From a virus, in IMG/VR virus record IMGVR_UViG_3300047369_000650, positions 113,536 through 177,535 of that record: 64,000 bases of DNA. One strand, 5' to 3'. The notes beneath the pieces are model-generated. The model had not been told where the DNA came from. It saw nothing but the letters and a program-made list of their open reading frames with translations, and ran no database searches. The translations under genes and the position numbers were made by a program. This document shows positions 25,647-46,389 of the stretch, one piece after another. The stretch's first letter is position 1; the number at the start of each line of letters is the position of its first letter.

Positions 25647-25826
25647 ATGCATATAATAAGAAATAAAGAAGGCGATATTATTGCACTATCTTCAAAAAAG
25701 GAAGATGCTATTAATATTGCCGATAAAAAAATGGATAAAGCTGATTATATTTTGGAAGAAATATTAGACAGCATACAACTTAGAGAAATTTACAGAGTTT
25801 ATTACGGAAAAATAAATAATGACTGA
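25647..25826 (+). CDS. Hypothetical protein (59 aa)
   Basis: MHIIRNKEGDIIALSSKKEDAINIAD...; fills the gap and overlaps the next start. Confidence 0.55.
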   Translation: MHIIRNKEGDIIALSSKKEDAINIADKKMDKADYILEEILDSIQLREIYRVYYGKINND

Positions 25827-26025
25827 TGAAGAAGTAAGAGCTGCAGCTCAGAAAGAAGCGGAAAAAACATTTGCTGATTTTATGCTTTGGAGTAAAAGAA
25901 CCACATATGCTGCAATTGCAATGCTTTTAATTGTAGCATCATGTAACTTTGGGGTAGAGGACGACACCTATCCTGCCTATAACGGCGAACAATATAATCC
26001 GTCCAATCTTAATGTAAAGAAATAA
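25819..26025 (+). CDS. aa3-type cytochrome c oxidase subunit IV-like membrane peptide
   Basis: AEKTFADFMLWSKRTTYAAIAMLLIVASCN resembles the Q.KTF.GF...TM pattern of Rhodobacteraceae subunit IV. Confidence 0.5.
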   Translation: MTDEEVRAAAQKEAEKTFADFMLWSKRTTYAAIAMLLIVASCNFGVEDDTYPAYNGEQYNPSNLNVKK

Positions 26026-26039
26026 AGATAGGAAAATCT

Positions 26040-26456
26040 ATGAAGAATCTAATTATAGCAAGTATTATGGCACTTCTCACTACTTCAGTATTTGCTGAAG
26101 ATATAACAATTGAAATGTTAAATAAACGTGAAGATGGCGCTAAGATGGTATATTCTCAAGACATTGCACGTATTGATGTAGGAGATACAATTACTTGGGT
26201 ACCGACACAAAAAGGACATAATGTAGAATTTATTGCAGGTCCTGATGGATGGAAAGCGCCAAAAAAATCAAAACTTAGCAAAGAAGTTTCTATTACTTTT
26301 GACACACCAGGAGTGTATCTATATCAATGTTCACCACATAAAACAATGGGTATGATTGCTATTGTGGTAGTAGGCGATGGAGACAATGATATCTCAAAGG
26401 CTAAAGTAAAAGGTAAGTCAAAAAAAGTATTTAAGGCTTTATTGGCTGAACTATAA
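26040..26456 (+). CDS. Pseudoazurin (type-1 blue copper protein)
   Basis: Signal peptide; IEMLNK, GDTITW, GHNVEF, YLYQCSPHKTMGM supply the His/Cys/His/Met ligands. Confidence 0.92.
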   Translation: MKNLIIASIMALLTTSVFAEDITIEMLNKREDGAKMVYSQDIARIDVGDTITWVPTQKGHNVEFIAGPDGWKAPKKSKLSKEVSITFDTPGVYLYQCSPHKTMGMIAIVVVGDGDNDISKAKVKGKSKKVFKALLAEL

Positions 26457-26863
26457 TGATTAAAAAACTAGTTAACAAAATCCCAGAGTTTTGTATGACT
26501 CATTGGTTACTTAGAATACCTCTTATTGTTGTATTTTTGCAGCAAGGGCTTTCTAAGTGGCCTATTGATGTAAATGATTCTCCAGTAGAATTAACACTAT
26601 TAGTTTGGACATTCGTTGTACTAGGCGAGCTAGGTGGTGCCATCGGTCTTATTGTTGGTGGTATATTAGATTATATTAAAAAACTAAAAGAGTTTGGTGA
26701 TATTATTACACGTTTCTCCGGTATTACTATGGCAAGTATTATGACTGGAGTTATTTGGACTGGAGAACCCGAAAGCTTTACTGATGTGTTATTATATGAT
26801 AATCTTCATGTATTACTATGGGTAGGCTGTATGTACTTTGCCCTTAGAGGTAATCGTTCGTGA
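26456..26863 (+). CDS. DoxX-family membrane protein
   Basis: LLRIPLIVVFLQQGLSKW and GELGGAIGLIVG; four hydrophobic segments. Confidence 0.75.
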   Translation: MIKKLVNKIPEFCMTHWLLRIPLIVVFLQQGLSKWPIDVNDSPVELTLLVWTFVVLGELGGAIGLIVGGILDYIKKLKEFGDIITRFSGITMASIMTGVIWTGEPESFTDVLLYDNLHVLLWVGCMYFALRGNRS

Positions 26864-27177: not shown

Positions 27178-29760
27178 TTGAATTCATTCTACACTTCTGT
27201 GAACCGTTATGGTAATTCTATTCTTTATCGTGGATATTCCCCTAATGGTTCGCCAATTAATCAACGTTATAAATTTAAACCAAAATTCTGGGTAGCATCT
27301 AAGGATCCAACAGAGATAAAATCCTTTGATGGTGGCAACATAAGCCCTATAGAATTTGAAAATATGCGTGAAGCTAAAGAGTTTCTTGAACAATATTCAG
27401 AAATGGATGGCGTAAAGATATATGGCACACGTAATTATATACATCAGTTTATTACAGATAAGTTTCCTGATGATATTAAATTTAATCCGAGTAGTATAAA
27501 TGTAGTAAACTTTGATATAGAGGTTGCCTCAGATGATGGGTTTCCAACTCCAGATGCTGCAGCATATCCAATTATATCTATTGCTCTTAAATCCAGTAAA
27601 TCTTCGATATATCAAGTGTGGGGTTTAGATGACTATGATCCATCTAAAACAGAAATCAATTTAGATGGTGGTCAGATACAGTATCATCAGTTTGACTCTG
27701 AACCAGCAATGATGGCTTCGTTTCTAACTTACTGGACTAAAAATTATCCTGATATTATTACTGGCTGGAATACTAGATTCTTTGATGTTCCTTATCTTGT
27801 TAATCGTATTAAAATTATTGGTACGGAAGAAGCCGCTAACAAGTTATCTCCATGGAAACTTGTTAATGAAAGAAATACTACAATCATGGGTCGACCTCAG
27901 GTTAACCATGAGATTGTTGGTATTCAACAAGCAGATTATCTTGAACTATTTAAAAAGTTTGGATATTCATATGGAACACAAGAATCATATAAACTAGATC
28001 ATGTGGCCCATACTGTTCTTGGAGAAAAGAAACTTTCCTATGAAGAACATGGTAATCTCTATACATTATACAAACAAGATCATCAGAAGTTTATTGACTA
28101 TAATATCAGAGATGTTCAGCTAATTGATAAGATGGATGCTAAGATGGGTCTTATTAACTTAGCAATGACTATGGCATATAGAGCAGGTACTAATCTTTCC
28201 GAGACATTTGGTACAACATCTATCTGGGAATCAATTCTCTATCGTAGATTACTCTCAAAGAATATTGTGTCACCAGTAGAGCAGATTCAGAGAGTTGCTT
28301 ATGAAAATAATTCTAATCCAAATATTATCGAGGGTGGCTATGTAAAAGATCCTCAAGTTGGTGCACACGACTGGGTAGTATCATTTGATTTAAATTCTCT
28401 GTATCCAAATATTATTGTTCAGTCTAACATATCTCCAGAGACTATTATTCGTAACAAAACATGGAGAACATTTCAGCAAGGTGTTGATCACTATTTAAAC
28501 GGAACAGATAAAGCTGATAGTGAATATTCTATCTGCGCAAGTGGAGTGCCTTTCTCGAGAGAAAAGCAAGGGGTAATTCCAGAACTCATTGTTGATTACT
28601 ATTCAGAAAGAAGTGTTATCAAGAAAAAGATGTTGGATGCTAAGTCACAATATGAAAAGACAAAATCATCATATCTTGAAGCAGAAATCAATCAGCTAGA
28701 AAATAACCAGATGTCAATTAAGATTTTACTTAATTCTCTTTATGGTGCTCTTGCAAATAAACATTTTAAATACTTTGATAATGCCCTAGCCGAGAGTGTA
28801 ACACTTACTGGTCAGCTTTCTATTAAATGGGCAGAGCGTGCTATTAATCAAGAGATGAATAAAATTCTTAAGACTGATGATTTTGATTATGTTATTGCTA
28901 TTGATACAGATTCAGTTTATATTAATTTCGGTCCTCTTGTAACCAAATTAAAACCAAAAGATCCTGTAAAGGCTATTGACAAACTATGTCAAGATCATTT
29001 TGAAAAGATTATTGCTAAAGCATATGATGGTTTATATCATAGGCTTAATGGCTATACTCCACGCATGGAAATGGGTAGAGAAGTTATTGCTGATCGTGGT
29101 ATATGGACTGCAAAAAAACGCTATATACTTAACGTACACAATAACGAAGGTGTTCAATATGCAGAACCTAAACTAAAAATGATGGGTATCGAGGCTATTA
29201 AATCATCAACTCCTGAAGTAGTCCGAGATAAGTTTAAAGAAATATTTAAGGTTATTATTACTAGTACTGAAGCAGAAACTCGTAGATATATTAATGACTT
29301 TAAAGCAAAATTTAAATCTCTACCACCTGAAGCTGTTGCATTTCCACGTGGAGTTTCTGATATTAGTAAGTTTTCACATAAGAAGAATATCTATTGTAAT
29401 TCTAATAATTCTAAACAATGGTCATCGGGTAGTCAGACAGCAACAATAAAAACAACGCCTATTCATGTTCGTGGTGCTCTTTTGTATAATCATCATGTTA
29501 AAGATAAGGCGCTAGATAAGAAGTACATTATGATACAAAACGGAGAAAAGATTAAATTTACATATATGAAGCTTCCGAATCCTATTCGTGAAAATGTAAT
29601 TTCTTTTCCGGATTACTTACCCGAAGAATTAAATCTGCATAAATATGTAGACTATGAGATGCAATTTGAAAAAACTTTTATTGAACCGCTTAATCCTATT
29701 CTTGAAGCCGTTGGTTGGTCTGTCAAGGATGTGCAAACACTGGAGGACTTTTTTGGATGA
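27178..29760 (+). CDS. gp43: DNA polymerase gp43 (family B)
   Basis: TTG start after GGAGG; FDIEV, GWNTRFFD, SFDLNSLYP, KILLNSLYGA, DTDS, KKRY; uninterrupted 860 aa. Confidence 0.97.
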   Translation: MNSFYTSVNRYGNSILYRGYSPNGSPINQRYKFKPKFWVASKDPTEIKSFDGGNISPIEFENMREAKEFLEQYSEMDGVKIYGTRNYIHQFITDKFPDDIKFNPSSINVVNFDIEVASDDGFPTPDAAAYPIISIALKSSKSSIYQVWGLDDYDPSKTEINLDGGQIQYHQFDSEPAMMASFLTYWTKNYPDIITGWNTRFFDVPYLVNRIKIIGTEEAANKLSPWKLVNERNTTIMGRPQVNHEIVGIQQADYLELFKKFGYSYGTQESYKLDHVAHTVLGEKKLSYEEHGNLYTLYKQDHQKFIDYNIRDVQLIDKMDAKMGLINLAMTMAYRAGTNLSETFGTTSIWESILYRRLLSKNIVSPVEQIQRVAYENNSNPNIIEGGYVKDPQVGAHDWVVSFDLNSLYPNIIVQSNISPETIIRNKTWRTFQQGVDHYLNGTDKADSEYSICASGVPFSREKQGVIPELIVDYYSERSVIKKKMLDAKSQYEKTKSSYLEAEINQLENNQMSIKILLNSLYGALANKHFKYFDNALAESVTLTGQLSIKWAERAINQEMNKILKTDDFDYVIAIDTDSVYINFGPLVTKLKPKDPVKAIDKLCQDHFEKIIAKAYDGLYHRLNGYTPRMEMGREVIADRGIWTAKKRYILNVHNNEGVQYAEPKLKMMGIEAIKSSTPEVVRDKFKEIFKVIITSTEAETRRYINDFKAKFKSLPPEAVAFPRGVSDISKFSHKKNIYCNSNNSKQWSSGSQTATIKTTPIHVRGALLYNHHVKDKALDKKYIMIQNGEKIKFTYMKLPNPIRENVISFPDYLPEELNLHKYVDYEMQFEKTFIEPLNPILEAVGWSVKDVQTLEDFFG

Positions 29761-30467
29761 ATTATATATTTGACGTAGACGGTACTTTAACACCAAGCCG
29801 TATGCGGATAGATAAAGAATTTAAGGAATTCTTTTTAGAATTTATAAAGAAAAATAATGTTTATCTTGCTACAGGATCAGATTATATAAAAACAGTAGAA
29901 CAACTTGGAACAGAAATCTGTGAGAGTGTTACTAAGTGTTATAACTGTTGTGGTAACAGCGTTTGGCAAAACGGAGAAGAAATATTTAGATCCGATTGGA
30001 CGCTGTCGCACGAATTAGATAAATGGTTAAAAAAAGAACTAAAGAAAAGTAAATTTGATATAAGAACTGGTAATCATATTGAGCAAAGACCCGGCTTGGT
30101 AAATTTTAGCATTGTCGGTAGAAATGCCTCCTTTGAAGAAAGATTTATCTACACTCAATGGGATGAACAGGTAGAAGAAAGAAAAACAATTGCTAGAGAA
30201 TTTAATCAACAGTTTGCATATTACAAAGCTCAAGTAGCAGGTGAGACAGGTCTTGATATTATGCCTATAGGATATGATAAAAGACAAATTGCCGATGATA
30301 TTGAAGGTCCAATAATATTCTTTGGTGATAAAATGGCTCATGGTGGTAACGATTATCCATTAGCTGAAGTAATACAGTATAGAGAAAATTCTTGGAATTA
30401 TGAAGTAAAGTCTTGGAAAGACACCCATAAAATATTAATTAGTTTATCATATAATGGTTTACAATAA
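29757..30467 (+). CDS. HAD-IIB phosphomannomutase-like enzyme
   Basis: FDVDGTLT, ATGSD, IEQRPGLVNFSIVGRNAS.EER, FFGDKMAHGGNDYP. Confidence 0.8.
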   Translation: MNYIFDVDGTLTPSRMRIDKEFKEFFLEFIKKNNVYLATGSDYIKTVEQLGTEICESVTKCYNCCGNSVWQNGEEIFRSDWTLSHELDKWLKKELKKSKFDIRTGNHIEQRPGLVNFSIVGRNASFEERFIYTQWDEQVEERKTIAREFNQQFAYYKAQVAGETGLDIMPIGYDKRQIADDIEGPIIFFGDKMAHGGNDYPLAEVIQYRENSWNYEVKSWKDTHKILISLSYNGLQ

Positions 30468-30486
30468 GTAAAATATAGTGTATAAT
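30458..30486 (+). promoter_or_regulatory. Sigma70-type promoter
   Basis: TTTACA-N17-TATAAT. Confidence 0.75.
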
Positions 30487-30507
30487 AATACTATAGAGGA
30501 GAAAAAA

Positions 30508-30867
30508 ATGAAAGCTGGTAAAGTATGGGGAACAACTGAACTGATTGAAGCTAATGGCGCTTTAGAATTTCATCGTATTGAAATGGAAGAAGGTGGTGTA
30601 TGCTCTAAGCACTTACATCGCTATAAGTGGAATGGTTTTTATGTAGAATCTGGAAAGATGCTTATTCGTACATGGCAACGTGATTACGATTTAGTTGATG
30701 TTACTATTCTTGATGAAGGCGATTATCATAAAGTTAAACCTGGTCTTTATCATCAATTTGAGTGTCTTCAAGAAGGTGTGGCTTACGAGCTATATTGGGC
30801 AGAGTTTAATCATAATGATATTGAACGTGAAAGTGTAGGATATCATATGGATGATGTAGATGACTGA
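30508..30867 (+). CDS. Cupin-domain protein (sugar isomerase-like)
   Basis: KVWGTTE, CSKHLH..KWNGFYVESG, VKPGLYHQF; ATG after GAGGAG. Confidence 0.75.
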   Translation: MKAGKVWGTTELIEANGALEFHRIEMEEGGVCSKHLHRYKWNGFYVESGKMLIRTWQRDYDLVDVTILDEGDYHKVKPGLYHQFECLQEGVAYELYWAEFNHNDIERESVGYHMDDVDD

Positions 30868-31024
30868 TTCTTTTTCTGATGTAACAAGAGTAGAAGTTAT
30901 TGATAATAATGGTCGATCATATACTAAAAATTGGGTAGATAGTGTAGAAATACAACTTCAAGATGACGGAAAAACTCTTAAATTATTTGTACACTATGAT
31001 GATGAGGAGATATCAGATGACTGA
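30860..31024 (+). CDS. Hypothetical protein (54 aa)
   Basis: MTDSFSDVTRVEVIDNNGRSYTKNWVDSVEIQLQDDGKTLKLFV...; overlaps both neighbours. Confidence 0.6.
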   Translation: MTDSFSDVTRVEVIDNNGRSYTKNWVDSVEIQLQDDGKTLKLFVHYDDEEISDD

Positions 31025-31304
31025 GTATGTAGTATTAACAGCAATTCAACAATTTAGAACACGTTATGTGGTTCCAGTAGAAGATATGGAAGACTGTGAT
31101 CCTGAAACATTTATTAAAGATTCTGTTACTTTTGGCGAAGTAAAAGAGTTTAGCCAATTAGATTTAAAAGAAAATATAATCGATGTTCAAATATATGATG
31201 AGAATAATCTTTTAGATTTATTCGACAAAGATAATGATTATCTTTCTGGATGGACTAAAGAACAAAAAATAAAATGGATTAGAAATTGGGAAGAAGGTCT
31301 ATGA
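31017..31304 (+). CDS. Hypothetical protein
   Basis: GAGGAG RBS before ATG 31017; acidic 95 aa. Confidence 0.65.
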   Translation: MTEYVVLTAIQQFRTRYVVPVEDMEDCDPETFIKDSVTFGEVKEFSQLDLKENIIDVQIYDENNLLDLFDKDNDYLSGWTKEQKIKWIRNWEEGL

Positions 31305-31714
31305 GAGTAGGATTAACTGCTAGCACATTTGATTTATTGCATGCAGGTCACATAATGATGTTAAGAGAAGCTAAGTCACAATGTGATTGGCTTATTGCTG
31401 CTTTACAAGTAGATCCTAGCTATGATCGAAAAGAAAAAAATTCTCCTATTCAAACTATTGTTGAGAGACAAGCACAGCTTGAAGCAGTAAAATATGTTGA
31501 TGAAGTTATTATATATTGTACAGAGGCAGATCTACTTGATATAATTAATATGTATCCAATTAATGTTAGAATACTAGGTGAAGAATATAGAACACAAAAT
31601 TTTACAGGTAAAGATGAATGCCGTAATAGAGGCATTGACTTGTATTTTAATAAGCGTGATCATAGATTTAGTTCAAGTGGATTAAGAAATCGTGTTTGTG
31701 ACAATCATAAATAA
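31301..31714 (+). CDS. Cytidylyltransferase (TagD/RfaE-like)
   Basis: TASTFDLLHAGH (HxGH), ER..QLEAVKYVDEV, LGEEY, FSSSGLR. Confidence 0.88.
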   Translation: MRVGLTASTFDLLHAGHIMMLREAKSQCDWLIAALQVDPSYDRKEKNSPIQTIVERQAQLEAVKYVDEVIIYCTEADLLDIINMYPINVRILGEEYRTQNFTGKDECRNRGIDLYFNKRDHRFSSSGLRNRVCDNHK

Positions 31715-31717
31715 TAC

Positions 31718-31746
31718 TTTACAAATTGATCAAAATAGGATATAAT
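31718..31746 (+). promoter_or_regulatory. Sigma70-type promoter
   Basis: TTTACA-N17-TATAAT. Confidence 0.75.
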
Positions 31747-31752
31747 ATAAAA

Positions 31753-32046
31753 ATGATTTATGAAGAAAAAATTATTCAGTGGCACTATGATAGAAATCTT
31801 ATTGAAGGTTCTACAGATAAAGATCAGTATATGAAACTTATTCAAGAAATGGGTGAACTATCAGATAATATCTGTAAGGGTAAAGATATTAGAGATGACT
31901 GCGGAGATATTATGGTTGTTCTTATTAATATCATGGAAAGAAATAATATCAGTCTTGAAGAATGTCTTGAAGTAGCCTATAACGATATTAAGGACCGTAA
32001 AGGTAAGATGGTAGATGGTGTCTTCGTAAAAGAAGGTGATAGTTAA
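31753..32046 (+). CDS. MazG-like NTP pyrophosphohydrolase
   Basis: KLIQEMGEL...IRDDCGDIMVVL...AYNDIKDRKG all-alpha NTP-PPase pattern. Confidence 0.82.
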   Translation: MIYEEKIIQWHYDRNLIEGSTDKDQYMKLIQEMGELSDNICKGKDIRDDCGDIMVVLINIMERNNISLEECLEVAYNDIKDRKGKMVDGVFVKEGDS

Positions 32047-32981
32047 TGCAACCAAAATATCCAATTTATATTATCTCTAAGGGTAGAGCCGACTCACGGC
32101 TTACCTCTAAAACTCTTGATGAGATTAGAGTACCATATAAAATTGTTATTGAAGAAAGTGAGTTTGATGATTATAATAAAGGCATTTCAGCCGATAAGAT
32201 TCTAACTCTACCGCCCGGATTTAGAGAAAATCCAAAGTATGCAATTCCAGATAATAAAGGTAGAATCGGCGGTTCTATTCCAGCACGCAACTTTGTCTGG
32301 GATCATTCTATTAAAGAAGGTCATGAGCGTCATTGGATTATGGATGATAATATCAAACATTTCTATAGACTGCATAAAAACCAAAAGACTAAAGTGACAT
32401 CTGGTACAGTAATTAGATTGTGTGAAGACTTTACAGATCGCTATAAAAATGTTAAAATGTCTGGTATGAACTATCAGTATTTTGCTCCAGCTTCTCAGAA
32501 GAAAAGACCATACACACTTAATACTAGAATTTATTCCTGTATTTTATTATCTAATGATATTAAACATAGATGGCGTGGTAAATATAATGAAGATACCGAT
32601 CTGAGTTTAAATATTCTAAAAGATGATTGGTGTACAATTCTATTTAATGCCTTCTTGTGTGGTAAGATTACAACTCTTGTTATGGGTGGTGGTAATACAG
32701 ATAATGTGTATGTGGATGGAGATAATCGTTTACAATTTGCACAAGCACTTGTAGAACAACATCCAGACTTGGTTAAAGTTGTTCAAAGATATAATAGATG
32801 GCATCACCACGTTGATTATAGCCCATTTAAAAAGAATAAACTTATTTATCGTGATGACTATGTAATTAAAAGTGGTACTAATGAGTATGGTATGAAATTA
32901 CATGCATTAACTATGGATCAATATAAAAAAGCAACAACAGAATTTGGAAATGCGGAGAACCCTTATTATGAGCAAACCTAA
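32046..32981 (+). CDS. GT-A glycosyltransferase (GREB1/TAGT-like)
   Basis: IYIISKGRA, RNFVWDHS, HWIMDDNI, YSCILL, NEDTDLSL, GGNT. Confidence 0.7.
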   Translation: MQPKYPIYIISKGRADSRLTSKTLDEIRVPYKIVIEESEFDDYNKGISADKILTLPPGFRENPKYAIPDNKGRIGGSIPARNFVWDHSIKEGHERHWIMDDNIKHFYRLHKNQKTKVTSGTVIRLCEDFTDRYKNVKMSGMNYQYFAPASQKKRPYTLNTRIYSCILLSNDIKHRWRGKYNEDTDLSLNILKDDWCTILFNAFLCGKITTLVMGGGNTDNVYVDGDNRLQFAQALVEQHPDLVKVVQRYNRWHHHVDYSPFKKNKLIYRDDYVIKSGTNEYGMKLHALTMDQYKKATTEFGNAENPYYEQT

Positions 32982-33249
32982 AGGCGCTAACTTATTTGTA
33001 TTAGATGGACAAGAAGATGATCTTGACCCTATGGGCTGGGATGACATGCCAGAATTTGAACAAGAAAATCGTGAAGATTATGCTGCTATTGTGATGCGAT
33101 TTAGAACAGAAGAAGATTTAAAAGAATTTGCACAAAAGATTGGTCAACCAAATCTTACTAGAAAATCACGTGGTACATTCTACCCTGCTGTTGATTTTAA
33201 TGAAGCTAATCTTCTACGTTGGATGGATGAAGATCAAATACAGAGTTAA
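32968..33249 (+). CDS. Small acidic protein coupled to the glycosyltransferase
   Basis: WDDMPEFEQE...IVMRFRTEEDLKEFAQKIGQ; overlaps the GT stop. Confidence 0.65.
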   Translation: MSKPKGANLFVLDGQEDDLDPMGWDDMPEFEQENREDYAAIVMRFRTEEDLKEFAQKIGQPNLTRKSRGTFYPAVDFNEANLLRWMDEDQIQS

Positions 33250-33251
33250 TT

Positions 33252-34190
33252 ATGGAAGTTTCTGCAACATTCTTTAAATCTATATATGATAATAAAACTC
33301 ATAAGAACATGAGTTTTTCTGGCTTTCCTCAGTTTGAGGAATTTCTATATAAACTATCTGAAAGAAAATTAGAAGATAAAAAAGCTGCTCAGCTCATATC
33401 ACCAGCAACTTATATTAAAGATACTACAAGAGCAAATAAAAATGTAGTTGACTGGGCTGGATGGGCAGCTATGGATGTAGATGACCATGAGTTTAAAGGA
33501 GATTTAAAAGATGATCTTATTCGTATCTATGGTAAGTACTATTTTGTTTGCTATAGTACTGCTAGCAGCAGAGAAAGTTTACCAAAGTTTCGTTTGGTCT
33601 TCCCACTTACAGAAAGAGTTAGAGGAGATAATATCAGACATTTTTGGTACGCACTCAACACAGAACTCCAAGCAATCGGCGATGCGCAAACTAAGGATCT
33701 ATCACGAATGTATTATATCCCTGGTTCGTACTCTGGCGCTTTCAACTTTATTTTTACTAATACTGGCGGTAGTTATATAAACCCTCGAGAGTTAATGGCG
33801 AGTCATTCATATCAAGAAAAAAAGACCGGTACGTTCTTAGATAGATTACCAACAGAGATGCAAAAATCTATCATAGAATATCGTAAGAATAAAATGGAGA
33901 ATACTGGTGTTAGTTGGTCTAACTATGAAGATTGTCCATTCGTAAATAAAAATCTTATCAGAGATTTTAAGAATATAGCATATGTTGATAATACTGGAAG
34001 ATATGCTATGGTTTATAAGATTATGGTTTCAATAGCAAGTAGTGCAATTAAAAAAGAATATCCTATAAACACATTTGAGATTGTAGAACTAATTAAGCAA
34101 CTAGATGCCGATACAGCTAAGAGATATGAGAATAGACCTCTTAATGTAGAAGCGGATCGTGCTATAGAATATGCATACAGAAATATTTAA
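33252..34190 (+). CDS. AEP-superfamily primase/primase-polymerase-like protein
   Basis: AMDVDD, YSTASS...PKFRLVFPL and D.QTKDLSRMYY motifs; helical C-terminal domain. Confidence 0.7.
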   Translation: MEVSATFFKSIYDNKTHKNMSFSGFPQFEEFLYKLSERKLEDKKAAQLISPATYIKDTTRANKNVVDWAGWAAMDVDDHEFKGDLKDDLIRIYGKYYFVCYSTASSRESLPKFRLVFPLTERVRGDNIRHFWYALNTELQAIGDAQTKDLSRMYYIPGSYSGAFNFIFTNTGGSYINPRELMASHSYQEKKTGTFLDRLPTEMQKSIIEYRKNKMENTGVSWSNYEDCPFVNKNLIRDFKNIAYVDNTGRYAMVYKIMVSIASSAIKKEYPINTFEIVELIKQLDADTAKRYENRPLNVEADRAIEYAYRNI

Positions 34191-34266
34191 AAAAAATCAT
34201 TTTAGGGGTTTACAAGTGATATGTTTTATGTTATGTTGTAAGAGTAAATAGAATCGGAGACTTCTT
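34191..34266 (+). promoter_or_regulatory. Early promoter cassette copy B
   Basis: CATTTTAGGGGTTTACA-N17-TATGTT-GTAAGAGTAAATAGAATCGGAGA. Confidence 0.85.
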
Positions 34267-34548
34267 ATGGCTTACTATACTTACACAAAAGATCCTATCG
34301 GTTGTTTTGTTGAGAAAGATACCGGCAATTACTTTGAGTATTCACTTAACGATGAACCTATTTCAGGTTTTTCCGAAGACTTTCCCCATAAAGTTTGGGT
34401 AGGTGGCGGCGGTGTATGCGGCATGACGGGTTATAGATTTGCTCATGTTAAAAAGACTGTTGCTGTGATCGTTGTAGACGAAGACGAGTTTGGTCTTCCC
34501 GTTACTGAAAAGTGGTATGTTAAAAATCATAACCAATATGCACTTTAG
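34267..34548 (+). CDS. Hypothetical early protein
   Basis: 93 aa directly behind cassette B. Confidence 0.75.
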   Translation: MAYYTYTKDPIGCFVEKDTGNYFEYSLNDEPISGFSEDFPHKVWVGGGGVCGMTGYRFAHVKKTVAVIVVDEDEFGLPVTEKWYVKNHNQYAL

Positions 34549-34612
34549 GGATTTACAAACTCCTAAAAATATGGTATGTTGATTATATAAAGAGAATCCG
34601 AAAGGAACTAAA
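34538..34612 (+). promoter_or_regulatory. Early promoter cassette copy C (divergent)
   Basis: ATGCACTTTAGGGATTTACA-N17-TATGTT...AGAGAATCCGAAAGGA. Confidence 0.75.
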
Positions 34613-35122
34613 ATGTTTAACGTTGCTACAAATCTTACAAAAGTTGGAACTTACCTCGGATATTTTACAATTCAAGAGCATACAACAAACGTAAATAATA
34701 ATAAGCCTTCTCGTACTTATGAAAAGCTTGTATTTACAAAAGCCGATGGTATGGAGACTCGTGATTTTAAAGCTATGGGTGATATTGTATACGGTATGTA
34801 TGTTAACGGCAATCTTGTTAAGATTGGCAAAGCGGGTTCAACAAACGGTTGGGCTGGACGTATCGGTACCTACGGTGTTGATCCAAAAGGCGAAGCAACT
34901 AATCGTAAAATTATTACACATCTAAAAGAAGATTTTACATATGAAACACGTGTAGAAGTATATGGGATTTCAGTTCCTCGTATTCACTCAGAATATTTCT
35001 GCCCAGTAACGCGTGAAACAGTTTCTATTGAACTTCCACAGAACCATCAAGTAGAAACTCATTTAACTATTGAAGCAGAAGCAGAAGGCGAAGATCTGAT
35101 ATTCTGCACACAGAAAGTTTAA
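34613..35122 (+). CDS. GIY-YIG nuclease, T4 endonuclease II (DenA)-like
   Basis: DIVYGMYVNGNLVKIGKA...GRIGTY...TNRKI...VEVYG...VE parallels T4 DenA VIYAIAINDELVYIGKT..RINYY...VEFYA..EE. Confidence 0.6.
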   Translation: MFNVATNLTKVGTYLGYFTIQEHTTNVNNNKPSRTYEKLVFTKADGMETRDFKAMGDIVYGMYVNGNLVKIGKAGSTNGWAGRIGTYGVDPKGEATNRKIITHLKEDFTYETRVEVYGISVPRIHSEYFCPVTRETVSIELPQNHQVETHLTIEAEAEGEDLIFCTQKV

Positions 35123-35124
35123 TT

Positions 35125-35490
35125 ATGGCTAAAGTAGTATATGGTACAGATATATATGGAGATGATGTAAAGCTTTATGATTATAAAGATACACCTTCAT
35201 GCGAAATCTGTAATAATAAATTCAGAGGTGGCACCATTGATAAAAAAGGTAGTAGAAAAACCGATTTGCTTACCGATGTTGAAAAGGCTATTAGAAATAA
35301 ACAAAGACACAGCTATGGTCATTTGCGTAAAATTACAGTCGATAAAATCTTAATGGGTCACATGAAACAACCAAGACCATCTGGATTAAAACCTAATCAA
35401 GTCTTTGCGTGTGAATGTTGTTATAATGTACATATAAGTACGATAAGAATGTTAAAAGAAAAAGAATTAAATACATTACCGGGTCTTTAA
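35125..35490 (+). CDS. Hypothetical protein with two Cys pairs (possible Zn binding)
   Basis: CEIC and CECC motifs in 121 aa. Confidence 0.6.
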   Translation: MAKVVYGTDIYGDDVKLYDYKDTPSCEICNNKFRGGTIDKKGSRKTDLLTDVEKAIRNKQRHSYGHLRKITVDKILMGHMKQPRPSGLKPNQVFACECCYNVHISTIRMLKEKELNTLPGL

Positions 35491-35514
35491 TTCCTAAAAC
35501 AAATAAATGGTTAG

Positions 35515-36354
35515 GTGATGAGTAAAGAAAAATTTTATAATTTTTTTAATGATTTCTATAAAGAAGAAATTATTAACGTTGTAAAGTATCCAATATATAT
35601 TCCTTCTAAGGGAAGGCCTACCTGTGTCACAGCTAAAGTTTTAGAAGAAAGTGGGCTCAACTATTTAATTGTAGTTGAGCCTCAAGACTATGAACAATAC
35701 TCTATTTATCATAAACATGATAAGATGATCTGCTTAGAAAAAGACAATCAAGGAATACCATATGTAAGAAACTTTTGTAAAGAACATTCTGATGCAAAAT
35801 ATCATTGGCAGTTTGATGATAATATAAGATCGTTTAAAGTAAGAAAAGATGATAAGAACATAAAAGAGGATCCATCTAAACTAATATCCATAATAGAAAC
35901 TTTTACGAATCATTTTGAAAATATCGGCATATCTGGATTTTCTCATGATATTTTTGCTTGGACTAAAAAGTATCCTATAGATATAAACAAACAATGCTAT
36001 AGTGGTGTTCTTGTTAATAATAATATTAATATAAAATGGAGAGATAATGTCGTAGAGGATACAGATTATTCTTTACAAGTATTATCAAAAGAATATTGTA
36101 CATTGCTATTTAATACGCTGTTAATAGTTAAAGAAGCCACAAAAAAAGGTAACGGTGGTAATGATAATTCCGACAGTTGGCGACTAAATAGATCGTTAGG
36201 ATTACAAAATTATTGGCCAGAAGCAAACTTTAAAATAACTCGAGAGTACGGTAGGGTTAAGATAAAACCTTCTCAAATATGGAAAAAGTTTACTCATATG
36301 CCTAAAGGTTCTAATATAGATTTTAATGATAATGATTTATCCGAATTTTTTTAG
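35515..36354 (+). CDS. Second GT-A glycosyltransferase (GREB1/TAGT-like)
   Basis: IYIPSKGRP, GIPYVRNF, HWQFDDNI, EDTDYSL, GNGGN. Confidence 0.7.
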   Translation: MMSKEKFYNFFNDFYKEEIINVVKYPIYIPSKGRPTCVTAKVLEESGLNYLIVVEPQDYEQYSIYHKHDKMICLEKDNQGIPYVRNFCKEHSDAKYHWQFDDNIRSFKVRKDDKNIKEDPSKLISIIETFTNHFENIGISGFSHDIFAWTKKYPIDINKQCYSGVLVNNNINIKWRDNVVEDTDYSLQVLSKEYCTLLFNTLLIVKEATKKGNGGNDNSDSWRLNRSLGLQNYWPEANFKITREYGRVKIKPSQIWKKFTHMPKGSNIDFNDNDLSEFF

Positions 36355-36383
36355 TTTACAATACCTCTATAATAGTGTATAAT
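36355..36383 (+). promoter_or_regulatory. Sigma70-type promoter
   Basis: TTTACA-N17-TATAAT. Confidence 0.75.
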
Positions 36384-36406
36384 AGAGATATAAAGGAGAA
36401 TAAAAT

Positions 36407-37363
36407 ATGTCACATATAACAGTAACTGGCGGCGCCGGTTTTATTGCTTACCATCTTATACAAAAGCTAGTTGACGAAGGTCATACTGTAACAGCATTTG
36501 ATAACTTTAATGATTACTATGATGTTGATCTAAAAGAAGATAGAGCAAACAATTTAAAGAATCTTGGTGTTGAAGTGCACCGTCTTGATCTAAAATCAAA
36601 AGAACCTTTACGTTTTTTTCTTGCTGCTCATAAACCTGATGCCGTTATTCATTTAGCTGCATATGCAGGTGTACGACACTCGTTAGAAGAACCACAAACA
36701 TATATTGATAATAATGTTACTGGTACTCAAAATCTAATCGAAGCTTGTGTGGATGCTAATGTTGAAAACGTAATATATGCATCAACATCATGTACTATGG
36801 CTGGTAATGAATTACCCTGGAAAGAAGATGAGAAATGTGGTTATCAATTAAATCCATATGGCTATACTAAATTTACTAATGAAGCACAGTTTATGTCTAG
36901 TTCAATTATCAGGACAGTTGGGCTCCGTTTCTTTACTGTTTACGGTCCTTGGGGTCGCCCTGATATGGCACTCTTTGATTTTACTAAAAATATTGTTGCT
37001 GGTAAGGAAATTGAACTATTTAACTATGGCGATATGATTCGTGACTTTACATATGTTGATGATATTGTAAACGGTATTGTTATTGTTTTAAATCAATCTT
37101 TATCTCAAACTGAAGAATTTAATGAAATATATAACATTGGTTGTGGAGAACAAGTAAAGCTAGTTGATTTCGTTGATCACATTGAAAATAATCTTGACCG
37201 TAAAGCTAAACGTAAACTTGTGCCAATACACCCAGCTGATACTCAAGCTACTTGGTCTGATACAACTAAACTACAAAAACTTGGTTATAAACCTACAGTT
37301 TCAATTGCCGAAGGTGTGGAAAAATTTATTTCTTGGTATAAACTATATTATGGAGTAAACTAA
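36407..37363 (+). CDS. NAD-dependent epimerase (UDP-glucuronate 4-epimerase-like)
   Basis: TGGAGFIA, HLAAYAGVRHS, YGYTK, RFFTVYGPWGRPDMA, RDFTYVDDIV. Confidence 0.9.
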   Translation: MSHITVTGGAGFIAYHLIQKLVDEGHTVTAFDNFNDYYDVDLKEDRANNLKNLGVEVHRLDLKSKEPLRFFLAAHKPDAVIHLAAYAGVRHSLEEPQTYIDNNVTGTQNLIEACVDANVENVIYASTSCTMAGNELPWKEDEKCGYQLNPYGYTKFTNEAQFMSSSIIRTVGLRFFTVYGPWGRPDMALFDFTKNIVAGKEIELFNYGDMIRDFTYVDDIVNGIVIVLNQSLSQTEEFNEIYNIGCGEQVKLVDFVDHIENNLDRKAKRKLVPIHPADTQATWSDTTKLQKLGYKPTVSIAEGVEKFISWYKLYYGVN

Positions 37364-37366
37364 TGC

Positions 37367-37395
37367 TTTACAAAACCGTTGCATTATATTATAAT
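37367..37395 (+). promoter_or_regulatory. Sigma70-type promoter
   Basis: TTTACA-N17-TATAAT. Confidence 0.7.
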
Positions 37396-37477
37396 ATATC
37401 AGTAGAAGAATTAATTAATAGGCTTGTAAATAATGGCGAGCCTCTTATATGCAAATATTACAAGGAAGTTTATCCCG

Positions 37478-38317
37478 ATGGGTTCTAAATTAAAGATTGC
37501 AATTGTTGGACATGGTTTTGTCGGTAAAGCTATTGATCACGGTTTTAATGATTATAACTGTACCAAAATCATCATTGATCCTAAATATGGAAATAGTGTC
37601 GATAGTATTAAATCACTAGATGTAGATGTTTCTTTTGTGGCTGTTCCAACCCCTATGGGTAAAGATGGTGAGATTGATTCATCTATTGTGGTAGAAACTG
37701 TAAAAAAACTTAAACAACGGCGTAGTGGCATTATAGTAATTAAATCCACAGTAACACCTGATATTATTAAATCTCTTACTAGAGGAGGTGGCACAAGTTC
37801 AAGAGTTGTCTATAACCCAGAATTCCTAACAGAAGTTAATGCTAATTCTGATTTTATAAATCCTGATATGCATGTGTTTGGTGGACATAAAGAAACTACA
37901 CTACGATTAGAAGAAATCTATAAAGAATATAGTTTATGCAAACCATGTCCAGCCTTTCATATGTCTGCTACAGAAGCCAGCTTTGTTAAGTATGGTCTTA
38001 ACTGTTTTCTTGCTACCAAAGTTTTATGGTTTAATCAATTCTATGATGTGGTAGAAAAGTTTGGTGGAAATTTCGGTCATATAGTAAATGCTATTGGTAC
38101 AGATCCACGTATTGGTACATCACATACTAGAGCGCCAGGCTTTGATGGTAAACGCGGCTATGGTGGTGCTTGTTTCCCAAAAGATACATCCGCATTTAAT
38201 ACTTTTTCAAACCAAGAGTTTAGCGTTTTAAACGAGGTTATTCGTGTAAATAATGAATATAGAAAAGAGTATGAAAAAGATTCTCGTGAGCTAGAGCAAA
38301 ACGTAAGCTATGCTTGA
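37478..38317 (+). CDS. UDP-glucose/GDP-mannose 6-dehydrogenase family (short form)
   Basis: IVGHGFVG, VAVPTP, IKSTV.P, NPEFL, GYGGACFPKD; ends before the usual C-terminal UDP-binding domain. Confidence 0.88.
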   Translation: MGSKLKIAIVGHGFVGKAIDHGFNDYNCTKIIIDPKYGNSVDSIKSLDVDVSFVAVPTPMGKDGEIDSSIVVETVKKLKQRRSGIIVIKSTVTPDIIKSLTRGGGTSSRVVYNPEFLTEVNANSDFINPDMHVFGGHKETTLRLEEIYKEYSLCKPCPAFHMSATEASFVKYGLNCFLATKVLWFNQFYDVVEKFGGNFGHIVNAIGTDPRIGTSHTRAPGFDGKRGYGGACFPKDTSAFNTFSNQEFSVLNEVIRVNNEYRKEYEKDSRELEQNVSYA

Positions 38318-38504: not shown

Positions 38505-39551
38505 ATGTCAATTATGGACAAACTCAAGAAGAATTCAAAACTATCCCACACATCGATTCTTTCTGAGTCTAAATTTTTTACTGAAAAAGATATGGTTCCA
38601 ACAGATGTCCCTATGATTAATGTTGCACTATCTGGTTCGGTAGATGGTGGGTTAGCCCCAGGTCTTACAGTTCTTGCGGGACCTTCTAAACACTTTAAAA
38701 CTTCCTTTGCCTTACTTATGGCAGCTGCCTATTTAAAGGCATATCCAGATGCAGTAATGCTATTCTATGATTCAGAGTTTGGATCACCTCAGAGTTATTT
38801 TGAACAATTCGGTGTTGATACATCTCGTGTTCTTCATACACCAATTACTAATGTTGAAGAATTAAAATTTGACTTAATTGGTCAACTAGAAGAATTAGAT
38901 AGAAACGATAAAGTTGTAGTTGTTATTGATTCTATTGGTAACTTAGCATCAAAGAAAGAATTAGAAGACGCTAAGAATGAAAAGTCTGTAGCAGATATGT
39001 CTCGTGCAAAAGCACTTAAAGGCTTATTCCGTATGAGTACACCATATCTTGCTATGAAGAATATTCCACTTATTGCAGTAAATCATACATATCAAGAGAT
39101 TGGTTTATTTCCTAAAGCTATTGTATCTGGCGGAACTGGTATATACTATAGTGCAGATAATATTTGGATTATTGGTCGCCAACAAGATAAGAAAGGTACC
39201 GAGATTCAAGGTTATCACTTTGTGATTAATGTGGAGAAATCACGATATGTTAAAGAAAAGTCAAAGATTCCTATTACTGTGTCTTGGGAAGGTGGTGTCA
39301 AGTCTTATTCTGGCTTGCTCGATTGTGCTCTTGCTGGTGGTTATGCTGTTAAGCCTTCCAATGGCTGGTATGCTACTGTTGATCAATCTTCTGGAGAAGT
39401 TGGACCTAAAGTTCGGTACGATGGAACTCTTGATAAGTCCTTCTGGGATCCGATCTTTGCTGAAACGGATTTTAAAGATTTCCTAAAGAAGCAATATAGC
39501 ATCGGTCATCAGTCTCTTGTTGAAATGGATGAAATTGTGGTTGAAGAGTAA
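38505..39551 (+). CDS. uvsX: RecA-like recombinase UvsX
   Basis: AGPSKHFKT, FYDSEFG, IDSIGNLASKKE, SGGTGIYYSADNI, VEKSRYVKEK. Confidence 0.96.
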   Translation: MSIMDKLKKNSKLSHTSILSESKFFTEKDMVPTDVPMINVALSGSVDGGLAPGLTVLAGPSKHFKTSFALLMAAAYLKAYPDAVMLFYDSEFGSPQSYFEQFGVDTSRVLHTPITNVEELKFDLIGQLEELDRNDKVVVVIDSIGNLASKKELEDAKNEKSVADMSRAKALKGLFRMSTPYLAMKNIPLIAVNHTYQEIGLFPKAIVSGGTGIYYSADNIWIIGRQQDKKGTEIQGYHFVINVEKSRYVKEKSKIPITVSWEGGVKSYSGLLDCALAGGYAVKPSNGWYATVDQSSGEVGPKVRYDGTLDKSFWDPIFAETDFKDFLKKQYSIGHQSLVEMDEIVVEE

Positions 39552-43708: not shown

Positions 43709-44266
43709 ATGAAATATTATAGATTAGAACCATCAGTTAAAAAATCTGTTATTGAATGGCATTCATTTAAGAGAAAAGATGCCGACGGTAATACAATTTT
43801 TCTCCGTAAAGAATTAGGCTGGAGATACGGAGCATGGTTAATTAGTGTACCAGAGACAGATGAAGAAATTAAAGAATATCTTTCTGATAAAGGAGATTAT
43901 GAATCATTTCAGGAATATCTTGTAGACTATTATGGCGAAGATGATATGATTACAGAAGAAACCAAATTAGAAGATTATCTGCTTCCTAAAATAGATGAAG
44001 ACTTTGTTGACATTAGTGAAGATTATGAAGATGCAGAAATGTTAGAAACCTGGGATGGATGTTGGGAAGACTGGTCACTTATTGGAACCGAACTTGATGA
44101 AATATCAGAAGAACAGCAAGAACAATGGATAGAAGATGCTACAGCAGCGTATGATGAAGATTATGAAGATGGAGTAGAAGGATTAGGTTGGGAATTTATA
44201 GACTGCTTCTATGAAATGCATTGTCATCCAGAAATTACACCATGTGATAAAAATGGCAATACTTAA
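43709..44266 (+). CDS. Hypothetical acidic protein
   Basis: 185 aa, AGGAG RBS, D/E-rich. Confidence 0.7.
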   Translation: MKYYRLEPSVKKSVIEWHSFKRKDADGNTIFLRKELGWRYGAWLISVPETDEEIKEYLSDKGDYESFQEYLVDYYGEDDMITEETKLEDYLLPKIDEDFVDISEDYEDAEMLETWDGCWEDWSLIGTELDEISEEQQEQWIEDATAAYDEDYEDGVEGLGWEFIDCFYEMHCHPEITPCDKNGNT

Positions 44267-44759
44267 TGTTTTAAAGACTATAGGTCGTAATGAAGAAAGT
44301 GACGAATGTTATACTCCAATTAATCAAGTTAAACCTTTATTACAATATCTTGATAATAGTAAAACATATTATGAGCCAACATCTGGAATATCATCTAATA
44401 TAGTAAAAGCTTTTACCGAAAATGGATATGATATGAAGTCCAGTAACGGTAAAGACTTTTTTGAGTGTACTGCAGATGATGTATATGATGGTATAGTAAC
44501 TAACCCACCGTATAGTAAAAAAGATAAATTTATAAAACACTGCTATAATCTTAAAAAACCATTTGCTTTACTACTTCCCGTATCATCATTTCAAGGTGTA
44601 AGAAGGGGTAAACAGTTCATAGAGCACGGTATGTCCGCAATAGTTTATAATCACAGAGTTGATTTTACTGGTGGTGATAATCCGCATTTTGGCGTTGCAT
44701 GGTTTGTGCATGGTTTTTTACCACCCAATCAAATATTTTGGGTCGATAATAAATTTTAA
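44253..44759 (+). CDS. Putative N6-adenine (amino) DNA methyltransferase
   Basis: DECYTP, KDFF, IVTNPPYS (NPPY motif IV), FALLLP. Confidence 0.7.
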   Translation: MAILNVLKTIGRNEESDECYTPINQVKPLLQYLDNSKTYYEPTSGISSNIVKAFTENGYDMKSSNGKDFFECTADDVYDGIVTNPPYSKKDKFIKHCYNLKKPFALLLPVSSFQGVRRGKQFIEHGMSAIVYNHRVDFTGGDNPHFGVAWFVHGFLPPNQIFWVDNKF

Positions 44760-45788: not shown

Positions 45789-46073
45789 ATGAAAAATAAA
45801 ATTGACTATCGTTTTGACGAAGAAAAATATATTACGGAATTTAAAGAGTATGTAGATGCTACCTATAATCAGCACTATTCTCAAAATAAATTCCAATCAA
45901 CTGAAGTAATTATGGATCGTGGTCATGGTACTGGTTTCTGTATGGGGAATGTAGATAAATATTCCAATAGATATGGTAAGAAAGGTACTGCAGCAGATGC
46001 TCGTAAGGACCTTATGAAAGTATTACACTATGCTCTATTACAACTATATGTGCATGACAATGAACTTGGATAA
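45789..46073 (+). CDS. DUF3310-like protein
   Basis: HYS, GFCMGNVDKY..RYGKKG, DLMKVLHY. Confidence 0.7.
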   Translation: MKNKIDYRFDEEKYITEFKEYVDATYNQHYSQNKFQSTEVIMDRGHGTGFCMGNVDKYSNRYGKKGTAADARKDLMKVLHYALLQLYVHDNELG

Positions 46074-46389
46074 TTACGCAGCTCAGATCTTTGATGATAA
46101 TAAAAACATGATGGTACCTTGGTATCTCATGGCATCATATGCTTACTATAAAGAAGATGATCCTATATTAAGTGATGCACTATTTGATGATATGGGTAAA
46201 AAACTCCTAGAAAACTGGGATAACATTACGCATTTGCATAAAGAATATATCACCAAAGATGAGCTAGTTGCTGGTAGCTTTTTAGGTAAATATCCTAGTA
46301 GAATACCCGACTCTTTAAGAGAATTAAGAAAAGTTGATCCTAATACTAAAATTGAAAAAAAAGAAGTGACATTGGAAGATTTTTTCTAA
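46054..46389 (+). CDS. Stand-alone protein resembling NAD-ligase domain Ia
   Basis: ASYAYYKEDDPILSDALFDDM matches the YY...D.P..SD..YD motif; no adenylation domain. Confidence 0.55.
   Translation: MTMNLDNYAAQIFDDNKNMMVPWYLMASYAYYKEDDPILSDALFDDMGKKLLENWDNITHLHKEYITKDELVAGSFLGKYPSRIPDSLRELRKVDPNTKIEKKEVTLEDFF

Follow-up and report, generated by a model that had tools for sequence, protein, structure and literature searches.

A candidate DNA glycosylation cassette between gp43 and uvsX of a T4-like marine myovirus

The decoration of DNA with sugars is one of the main answers of phages to restriction and CRISPR, and to our knowledge every case that has been worked out begins with a hydroxymethyl- or hydroxy-pyrimidine, the product of a relative of thymidylate synthase (TS) or of a TET-like oxygenase. 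The locus considered here raises the question of whether a phage may glycosylate its DNA when it appears to encode neither. It lies in the final 64 kb (hereafter the window) of the 177,535-bp virus record IMGVR_UViG_3300047369_000650 of IMG/VR, a genome that is not closed and for which CheckV estimates a completeness of 86%, and it fills the interval between the genes for the DNA polymerase gp43 and the recombinase uvsX. A sequence-only reading of the window had described there a block of sugar-nucleotide genes with two paralogous glycosyltransferases of the GT-A fold, and all the genes that it named are found, on the + strand, across 29757-38317. We think it probable, if not strongly so, that the block, judged from its sequence and that of its relatives, serves to glycosylate DNA, is expressed early and occupies the slot that phages of the T4 superfamily use for DNA modification.

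In the mechanism proposed, the GT-A enzyme TAGT1 and a separately encoded small partner, o101, would form a two-part DNA glycosyltransferase that places the first sugar on phage DNA. A strain-variable second transferase, either TAGT2 or an enzyme of the GT-B fold, would be held at the fork by a tail that binds the gp45 clamp and would add or extend sugars during DNA synthesis. The companions of TAGT1, a MazG-like pyrophosphatase and an EndoII-like nuclease, would probably adjust the nucleotide pool and cleave DNA that lacks protection, with activated sugars from a phosphomannomutase (PMM)/cupin/nucleotidyltransferase route and/or a dehydrogenase/epimerase pair as possible donors for the TAGTs.

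Two TAGT glycosyltransferases and a small partner

The two paralogous GT-A enzymes are bona fide members of the TET-associated glycosyltransferase (TAGT) family (PF20691) in the T4 DNA-modification slot. They are 36% identical to each other (E=2e-35), TAGT1 being the conserved member of the pair and TAGT2 lying in a strain-variable slot. Among 10 TAGTs that include both paralogs, residues R81, D100, D101 and D183-T184 are invariant and N102 and E182 are at least 90% conserved, and the GT-A motif R ... DD[DN] ... ED is as in bioRxiv 10.1101/2023.12.21.572611. Neither enzyme has a signal peptide or membrane segment on inspection. It is known that the TAGT of T2/T6, a beta-glucosyl-HMC-alpha-glucosyltransferase, glucosylates glucosyl-hydroxymethylcytosine DNA (PMC13216743, PMC13390438) and that GT-A enzymes of the TAGT kind put hexose, N-acetylhexosamine or hexuronic acid on 5-hydroxymethylcytosine (5hmC) (bioRxiv 10.1101/2023.12.21.572611). 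TAGT1 is nearer to 'solitary' TAGTs from phages of Aeromonas, Vibrio and Tenacibaculum, with which it is 45-49% identical, than to that of T6, T6-type records falling short of E=1e-5. The system of T2/T6, TAGT with gene 42, nevertheless shares with this one the PF20691 family, the GT-A fold and a two-transferase logic with a strain-variable second enzyme.

That variability is seen in sister strains, where the segment 35122-36377, which holds o121 and TAGT2, is replaced by a gene for a 393-aa GT-B enzyme (weak Glycos_transf_1 and Glyco_transf_4 matches), with exact breakpoints and flanks that are ~98% identical. The swap resembles the pattern in T-even phages, in which T4 has beta-glucosyltransferase (beta-GT) where T6 has TAGT (PMC13390438). 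In one sister strain (L055, 8880-10066) the GT-B gene is split into open reading frames (ORFs) of 214 and 160 aa, by decay or sequencing error. A 312-aa gene between the TAGTs was considered as a third paralog and rejected; it is unrelated to both and encodes a primase of the archaeo-eukaryotic (AEP) type.

The partner o101 has a domain that no family in Pfam or PHROG covers, yet a profile built from 8 copies matches 2,871 representative clusters at E<=1e-3. Members are mostly of 85-120 aa, or of ~200 aa with this domain at the C-terminal end, and among 30 of the longer ones fusions with TAGT account for four, with another GT-A domain for one and with ParB_N for two. In Aeromonas phage Aeh1 and Vibrio phage Kuja the domain forms the N-terminal part of TAGT itself. 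On this evidence TAGT1 and o101 are the split form of a two-domain enzyme; in comparison with T6 TAGT, the N-terminal domain of TAGT1 is a separate gene. In two unrelated phages (loci L025 and L026) a ParB_N-like protein is encoded directly upstream of TAGT, with a terminase gene just downstream, and that of L025 ends in an o101 domain (E=3e-8). ParB-like proteins activate phage DNA dioxygenases (PMC13229309), and the ParB-dependent thymidine dioxygenases described there are likewise DNA-modifying enzymes that need a small or ParB-like partner, the differences being that o101 has no ParB domain and that the enzyme here is a glycosyltransferase. A word-index search for longer fused forms of o101 returned P0066 alone, which is a frameshift artefact.

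The gp43-uvsX interval in relatives and clamp-type tails

Whether such an enzyme pair is likely to act on DNA can be approached from what relatives keep in the same place, for which 29 related viral loci were mapped by tblastn. The nearest named relative is Phage C48C1, with a complete genome and a gp43 that is 53.6% identical, followed by cyanomyoviruses at ~45%. The genes for the MazG-like protein, TAGT1, o101, the primase and the nuclease keep the same order in lineages in which the identity of gp43 is down to 57-63%. PMM and cupin vary across lineages, and both are missing from the L020 lineage, which keeps TAGT1. The backbone of the interval consists of the primase, an epimerase of the short-chain dehydrogenase/reductase (SDR) family and a short dehydrogenase. 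In C48C1 the order is gp43, DNA methyltransferase, primase, SDR, dehydrogenase and uvsX, with TAGT nowhere in the record.

More distant relatives, found through the nuclease (L050, L051, L062 and L063), carry instead a TS-family gene of 227-248 aa. Their TS-like cassettes also hold PRA-PH or MazZ-like pyrophosphatases, with a dCMP deaminase in L050, L051 and L062, and some add serine hydroxymethyltransferase (SHMT), a radical-SAM protein and an enzyme of the pyridoxal-phosphate type; they probably serve thymidine or cytidine hypermodification. These cassettes lie in the gp43-uvsX slot, except that of L051, which is just downstream, past gp41 and ThyX, and ThyX is also encoded in 4/4 of the TS-like loci that extend that far. 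In L062 the TS-like cassette is interspersed with the genes for PMM, cupin, nucleotidyltransferase, SDR and dehydrogenase. The MazG-TAGT1-o101 module is missing both from the lineages with TS-like cassettes and from the methyltransferase-bearing C48C1. The gene order of T4 is 43, imm, 42, beta-gt, segA, uvsX, which bears out the sequence-only reading that this interval is where T4 has its hydroxymethylcytosine and glucosylation genes, 42 and beta-gt. From this comparison the interval is therefore a long-standing DNA-modification slot whose content is exchanged between lineages, some having a methylase, others a TS-like cassette and others the TAGT module. In contrast to the T-even phages the present cassette lacks dCMP hydroxymethylase, dCTPase (gp56) and alpha- or beta-GT.

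In one related locus (L029, 15481-18460) gp45 lies between the dehydrogenase and uvsX, and uvsX itself is interrupted by an HNH/NUMOD3 endonuclease ORF, likely a mobile intron or homing element.

A second line of evidence comes from the C-termini of the encoded proteins. The motif L-x-x-F-[FLMIY] occurs within the last 8 residues of 4 of the 191 ORFs of the record, where 0.6 would be expected from the internal frequency of the motif. The four are gp43 (TLEDFFG), gp55 (DLSDFLE; phrog_234), a LigA-Ia-like ORF (TLEDFF) and TAGT2 (DLSEFF). In T4 the corresponding tails are SLDFLFG on gp43 and SLDFLYEAND on gp55, and both bind gp45. The GT-B replacement of TAGT2 ends in HLENFMI in all variants seen, whilst among the annotated proteins of the C48C1 locus the tail is present only on gp43 (TLEDFFG) and on the adjacent DNA methyltransferase (TLDAFFG). 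In L062 and L050 it is found, besides gp43, only on proteins of 335 aa (ALEDFMV) and 347 aa (QLDSFMV) respectively at the TAGT2 position, the former having no match in PHROG. Thus at least three unrelated enzyme families in the slot bear the tail, GT-A, GT-B and methyltransferase, the last of which undoubtedly acts on DNA, and these tails are the best in-sequence evidence that the variable transferase may act on DNA at the fork. The alpha-GT of T4 binds and co-purifies with gp45 (PMC13216743), and is in that respect a replisome-linked DNA sugar transferase of the kind proposed here. It is however a GT-B enzyme without a tail of the gp43/gp55 type, whereas here a C-terminal L-x-x-F-F stands on a GT-A enzyme and a tail also on its GT-B replacement.

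The tail of the C48C1 methyltransferase (L032, 14501-15385) suggests a clamp-tethered methylase. The LigA-Ia-like ORF, of 119 aa at 46030-46389, resembles domain Ia of NAD-dependent DNA ligase (phrog_19233; weak matches to ligase PHROGs).

Sugar-nucleotide genes and neighbours of the cassette

The features of the interval are collected in the table. The best 15 solved matches of the PMM-like protein, a member of the haloacid dehalogenase (HAD) superfamily, are all phosphomannomutases (E=3e-30), and the HAD nucleophile motif DVDGT is present. It is predicted to be a mutase that converts a sugar-6-phosphate to a sugar-1-phosphate, and its gene is found in some lineages only. The cupin, with a weak match to the WbuC-family model and no significant relative among solved structures, is a candidate sugar-phosphate isomerase or nucleoside-diphosphate (NDP)-sugar epimerase; a role as base oxygenase is unsupported, the same cupin (76% identical) being present in a TS-bearing relative. 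The nucleotidyltransferase falls below both equivalog cut-offs, TIGR02199 (HldE domain II; 69 against 181.5 bits) and TIGR01518 (TagD; 62 against 165), and meets the general fold family alone (TIGR00125/PF01467), its best solved relatives being ECT and TagD. It lies below the cut-offs for the ADP-heptose and CDP-glycerol enzymes, and its product may be an NDP-sugar or a CDP-alcohol. The gene is present, at shifting positions, in all TAGT1 lineages with a locus that extends to this region, and none was found in the locus of C48C1. Together with PMM it suggests a route from sugar-6-phosphate through sugar-1-phosphate to an NDP-sugar, and the two genes overlap in L051.

The SDR is, from its sequence, convincingly of the UDP-glucuronate 4-epimerase type, with the Rossmann motif GGAGFIA and the motif YGYTK, and with 5u4q (E=1e-80), the Bacillus UDP-glucuronate 4-epimerase 6zl6 (E=7e-43) and MoeE5 (E=1e-33) as solved relatives. 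The title of 5u4q names a dTDP-glucose dehydratase, which we take to be in truth a Klebsiella uronate epimerase. The gene that had been named a UDP-glucose dehydrogenase is indeed there, and its product keeps the NAD-binding motif, the central domain and the catalytic cysteine motif GGACFPKD, but the entire C-terminal UDP-binding domain is missing, with coverage of positions 76-300 of the 413 in TIGR03026. The gap to uvsX, at 187 bases, is too small for a third domain, and the short form is not a local truncation, since a form of 271-319 aa is conserved in relatives.

It had also been suggested that the dehydrogenase and epimerase point to a uronic-acid modification of DNA. As stated this is unsupported, both being backbone genes that are also present in the TAGT-less C48C1, and it is further weakened by the lack of the UDP-binding domain and by a separate glycosyltransferase island that could use the sugars; for these reasons a uronic-acid donor is one option among several. 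It is kept as an option because there is a precedent, a GT-A enzyme and an epimerase that make hexuronyl-5hmC (bioRxiv 10.1101/2023.12.21.572611). In the metavirome 'subclass II' clusters of that study a nucleotide-sugar epimerase likewise accompanies a GT-A enzyme of the JGT/TAGT-like kind; the product of one of these pairs is hexuronic-acid-modified cytosine, and ParB-like, clamp, polymerase and terminase genes are neighbours there too. In contrast to those clusters the epimerase here belongs to the backbone and occurs without any TAGT.

Five identical strong promoters of the sigma-70 type (TTTACA, 17 bases, TATAAT) precede genes of the interval, and this set fits early expression alongside the replication genes.

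It is possible, although we regard it as doubtful, that functions are split, with the TAGTs acting on DNA with UDP-glucose or another donor from the host and the sugar-nucleotide genes being auxiliary, feeding a glycosyltransferase island behind the tail-fibre genes for glycans of the virion or host envelope. This would account for the SDR and short dehydrogenase in the corresponding position of C48C1, for a weak GT8-like gene behind the fibre cluster in both the record and C48C1, and for the L020 lineage with TAGT1 and no PMM or cupin, and it agrees with the interpretation of rfaE and UDP-glucose dehydrogenase in pelagimyophages as related to lipopolysaccharide (PMC7029224). However, the sugar genes of relatives are interleaved and translationally coupled with DNA-modification genes, the nucleotidyltransferase overlapping the TS-like gene in L062 and PMM, nucleotidyltransferase and dehydrogenase being coupled in L051. 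The distribution of the nucleotidyltransferase, which follows TAGT1 and was not found in the locus of C48C1, the GT-A and epimerase pairs that make hexuronyl-5hmC (bioRxiv 10.1101/2023.12.21.572611), and the placing of the sugar genes under early promoters like those of replication genes, all argue for a joint function as well.

The MazG-like protein, whose Pfam score of 19.4 bits is below the cut-off of 22, is encoded always immediately 5' of TAGT1, as an extra copy besides the usual phage mazG, and is 79-83% identical in lineages with a gp43 just 57-63% identical. The AEP-type primase, kept in all relatives including the TAGT-less C48C1, is a backbone replication gene outside the sugar system. 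No Toprim primase (DnaG/gp61 type) was detected in the 177.5-kb record; gp61, the core primase of T4, has perhaps been replaced.

The nuclease occurs with the TAGT module as well as with the TS-like cassettes, but none was found in the locus of C48C1; the protein is 83-95% identical across most lineages and 79% in one sister strain. In a profile search T4 EndoII (2wsh) was the only solved match below E=0.1 (E=0.015). A model based on an alignment of 31 sequences has a pLDDT of 93.7, against 46.7 for an earlier fold from 7 sequences, and its top Foldseek matches are Hpy188I (3oqg, 1.4e-4) and T4 EndoII (2wsh, 1.2e-3), both with probability 1.0. The fold and the GIY-YIG core are those of EndoII (DenA) and Hpy188I, at 13-17% identity and 169 against 136 aa, and residues Y60, K70-I71-G72, R83, Y87 and E148 are invariant. 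A tblastn search of named phages with the nuclease, and a search of solved structures with a profile of close homologs, returned nothing.

Besides the primase and nuclease, the sequence-only reading had not listed the small ORFs o54, o95, o93 and o121. Of these o54 matches phrog_10600, a family of unknown function, whilst o113, which shares its position with o95, has no PHROG match; o54 and o95/o113 are kept in the closest strains only.

Table. Features in and around the gp43-uvsX interval (positions in the window unless a locus is named)
Feature	Position	Strand	Evidence and remarks
gp43 DNA polymerase, left slot border	27178..29760	+	PF00136/PF03104; C-terminus TLEDFFG
Eukaryotic-type phosphomannomutase-like HAD	29757..30467	+	PF03332 E=2e-26, 93.5 bits vs cut-off 22.4
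Small metal-binding cupin	30508..30867	+	Cupin_2 26.4 bits (cut-off 27.2); phrog_7851 E=1e-15
Small acidic ORF o54	30860-31024	+	no Pfam match
Small acidic ORF o95/o113	31017-31304	+	no Pfam match
Cytidylyltransferase-fold nucleotidyltransferase	31301..31714	+	PF01467 E=2e-11; phrog_7878 E=1e-31
Small MazG-like all-alpha NTP pyrophosphatase	31753..32046	+	phrog_715 E=1.6e-35; phrog_1992 E=8e-39
TAGT1, GT-A glycosyltransferase	32046..32981	+	PF20691 E=6e-43, 147.6 bits vs 27.5 cut-off; phrog_842
o101, 93-aa acidic partner, pI 4.4	32968..33249	+	overlaps TAGT1 end; W-x-x-M-P-E ... F-A ... Y-P
AEP-type primase-like protein	33252..34190	+	phrog_9765 'DNA primase' E=7e-52; Atlas neighbours PriCT_1, BT4734-like_N
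o93 small protein	34267..34548	+	phrog_23785, unknown function
GIY-YIG nuclease, T4 EndoII (DenA)/Hpy188I type, 169 aa	34613..35122	+	profile and model
o121 basic zinc-ribbon-like protein	35125..35490	+	no family match; inside swapped segment 35122-36377
TAGT2, second paralog	35515..36354	+	PF20691 E=2e-28, 100.1 bits vs 27.5 cut-off; tail DLSEFF
SDR, UDP-glucuronate 4-epimerase type	36407..37363	+	PF01370; backbone gene
Short UDP-glucose-dehydrogenase-like protein	37433..38317	+	PF03721 (partial) and PF00984 only; backbone gene
uvsX recombinase, right slot border	38505..39551	+	PF21134/PF00154
Early-type promoters	27126 (gp43), 30458 (cupin), 31718 (MazG-like), 36355 (SDR), 37367 (dehydrogenase)
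TS-like cassettes of relatives	L062 5443-17048; L050 7971-17133; L051 8069-15605; L063 4147-7517

The genome, at ~33% G+C, is that of a T4-like marine myovirus and is taken for a pelagimyophage-type phage, since the group features described in PMC7029224 fit. A nucleotide search with the whole block found no match among named phages. The neighbours of the slot are gp43, uvsX and gp41, with ThyX downstream of gp41. Just upstream of gp43 (25819-26863) lie genes for a plastocyanin/azurin-like copper protein (PF00127, E=3e-16), a small cytochrome oxidase subunit IV-like protein and a weakly DoxX-like membrane protein. A full-length ATP-dependent phosphoenolpyruvate carboxykinase (PF01293, E=1e-87) is encoded at 18087-19280, between gp46 and gp45; such an auxiliary metabolic gene is unusual in a phage. 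At 43709-44759 there are overlapping ORFs of 185 and 182 aa, the second with a weak Eco57I-type methylase domain (E=0.0012) and possibly a remnant of an adenine methyltransferase. A 317-aa protein at 60079-61032, with no family match, is unusually conserved, being 91.6% identical to its homolog in L051, where other shared proteins are 34-86% identical.

The acceptor, rival explanations and wider meaning

Several observations weigh against a DNA glycosylation cassette. In the 177.5-kb record there is no match to Thymidylat_synt (PF00303), Tet_JBP (PF12851), DNA_methylase (PF00145), TGT (PF01702) or the 2-oxoglutarate oxygenase families PF13640, PF13759, PF05118 and PF13532; the same profile search recovers both TAGTs, and many ORFs of the record are unnamed. 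Sister contigs that reach ~10 kb past the end of the record have no match to PF00303 or PF12851, and tblastn of the TS-like, deaminase and SHMT proteins of relatives against the record returned nothing. The SDR and short dehydrogenase keep their place in C48C1, which has no TAGT. The interpretation of the clamp-type tails is post hoc and the motifs are short. The TAGT family includes GREB1, a protein O-GlcNAc transferase (PMC7968844). Nor can the DenA-like nuclease serve as proof of modified DNA, denA being present in most relatives of T4, some without gene 42 and many with unmodified DNA (PMC2993671).

The absence of a hydroxymethylase or TET/JBP gene, noted in the sequence-only reading for the window, thus extends to the whole record and ~10 kb beyond. 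The position of the L051 cassette holds just a few small ORFs in the record, and Pfam matches of 20 further ORFs (ribonucleotide reductase, RNase H, DenV, PhoH, phosphoenolpyruvate carboxykinase, fibre proteins) include no candidate. The TAGTs here do not co-occur with an acceptor-making enzyme, either a TET/JBP 5mYOX or a TS-family protein, whereas next to the 'subclass II' clusters 5hmC production is encoded, by a C5-methyltransferase and a TET-like 5mYOX, neither of which was found here. Three other TAGT-bearing marine contigs have no TS gene, and the cultured phages Aeh1 and 65 are reported to lack genes 42 and 56 (PMC2993671). Other routes to a modified base were considered and set aside: 7-deazaguanine, there being no TGT/DpdA; 5-methylcytosine with TET, there being no C5-methylase and no PF12851 match; and ThyX as a hydroxymethylase, which is unlikely given its 74% identity to the ThyX of a relative with a TS-like gene besides.

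Thus no known enzyme is encoded that would provide the DNA acceptor by making a hydroxymethyl- or hydroxy-pyrimidine. Since PF12851 is reported to miss 5-17% of phage 5mYOX (PMC13229309), a divergent TET-like enzyme in the record is possible. A tentative suggestion, to which we give rather less than even credence, is that the acceptor is formed without a TS-family or TET/JBP enzyme, in that a canonical base is glycosylated directly or one of the unnamed proteins is a base hydroxylase of a new kind. The proposal of DNA glycosylation has in sum gained comparative support from the tail, the partner fusions and the slot, with its uronic-acid part unestablished and its acceptor unexplained.

It could also be that DNA is no target at all, the block modifying host lipopolysaccharide or capsule, or phage or host proteins, with the TAGTs as protein or glycan transferases. 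The failure to find an acceptor-making enzyme in the record would be expected of such a system, the same-family GREB1 glycosylates protein (PMC7968844), glycosyltransferases of pelagimyophages have been read as O-chain modifiers (PMC7029224), and ~65% of 25,000 phage glycosyltransferase contigs lie away from base-modifying genes (bioRxiv 10.1101/2023.12.21.572611). We consider this unlikely: relatives use the slot for a DNA methyltransferase or a TS-like cassette, and T4 for gene 42 and beta-gt; the clamp-type tail is one that gp43, gp55 and a DNA methyltransferase also bear; and in other phages the partner domain occurs in fusions with ParB_N, and TAGT adjoins terminase genes. The lack of a signal peptide or membrane segment in both TAGTs, and early expression, which is unfit for glycosylation of the virion, speak against it too. 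That the transferases sit idle in the decaying remnant of a TS-like or TET-dependent pathway which lost its base-making step is very improbable: relatives with 55-61% identical gp43 do combine a TS-like cassette with this nuclease, primase, SDR and dehydrogenase, and the GT-B gene is in two ORFs in L055, but TAGT1, o101, the MazG-like protein and the nuclease are intact and 62-95% identical where gp43 is only 57-63%, the invariant TAGT residues are all kept in both paralogs, and the same orphan layout recurs in unrelated phages and in the cultured Aeh1 and 65 without gene 42 (PMC2993671).

The kind of system proposed, a DNA glycosylation cassette, is a familiar one, and the literature already describes 'orphan' TAGTs, a solitary TAGT being present in 288 of 753 TAGT-bearing phage genomes (PMC13216743). 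What is new is the clamp tail as a marker across enzyme families, the equivalence of the slot, the swap of the second transferase at strain level, and the size of the adaptor domain family and its pattern of fusion. A tail that is common to unrelated DNA-modifying enzymes offers a sequence marker for "acts on replicating DNA", and the widespread adaptor domain, split from or fused to TAGT, is a further handle. The cassette also questions the published lipopolysaccharide interpretation of such genes in SAR11-type myophages. If the acceptor is indeed formed without a TS-family or TET/JBP enzyme, the same would hold for 'solitary TAGT' phages in their hundreds, among them Aeromonas phages Aeh1 and 65, which are in culture, carry the fused form with no gene 42 and make the chemistry directly measurable.

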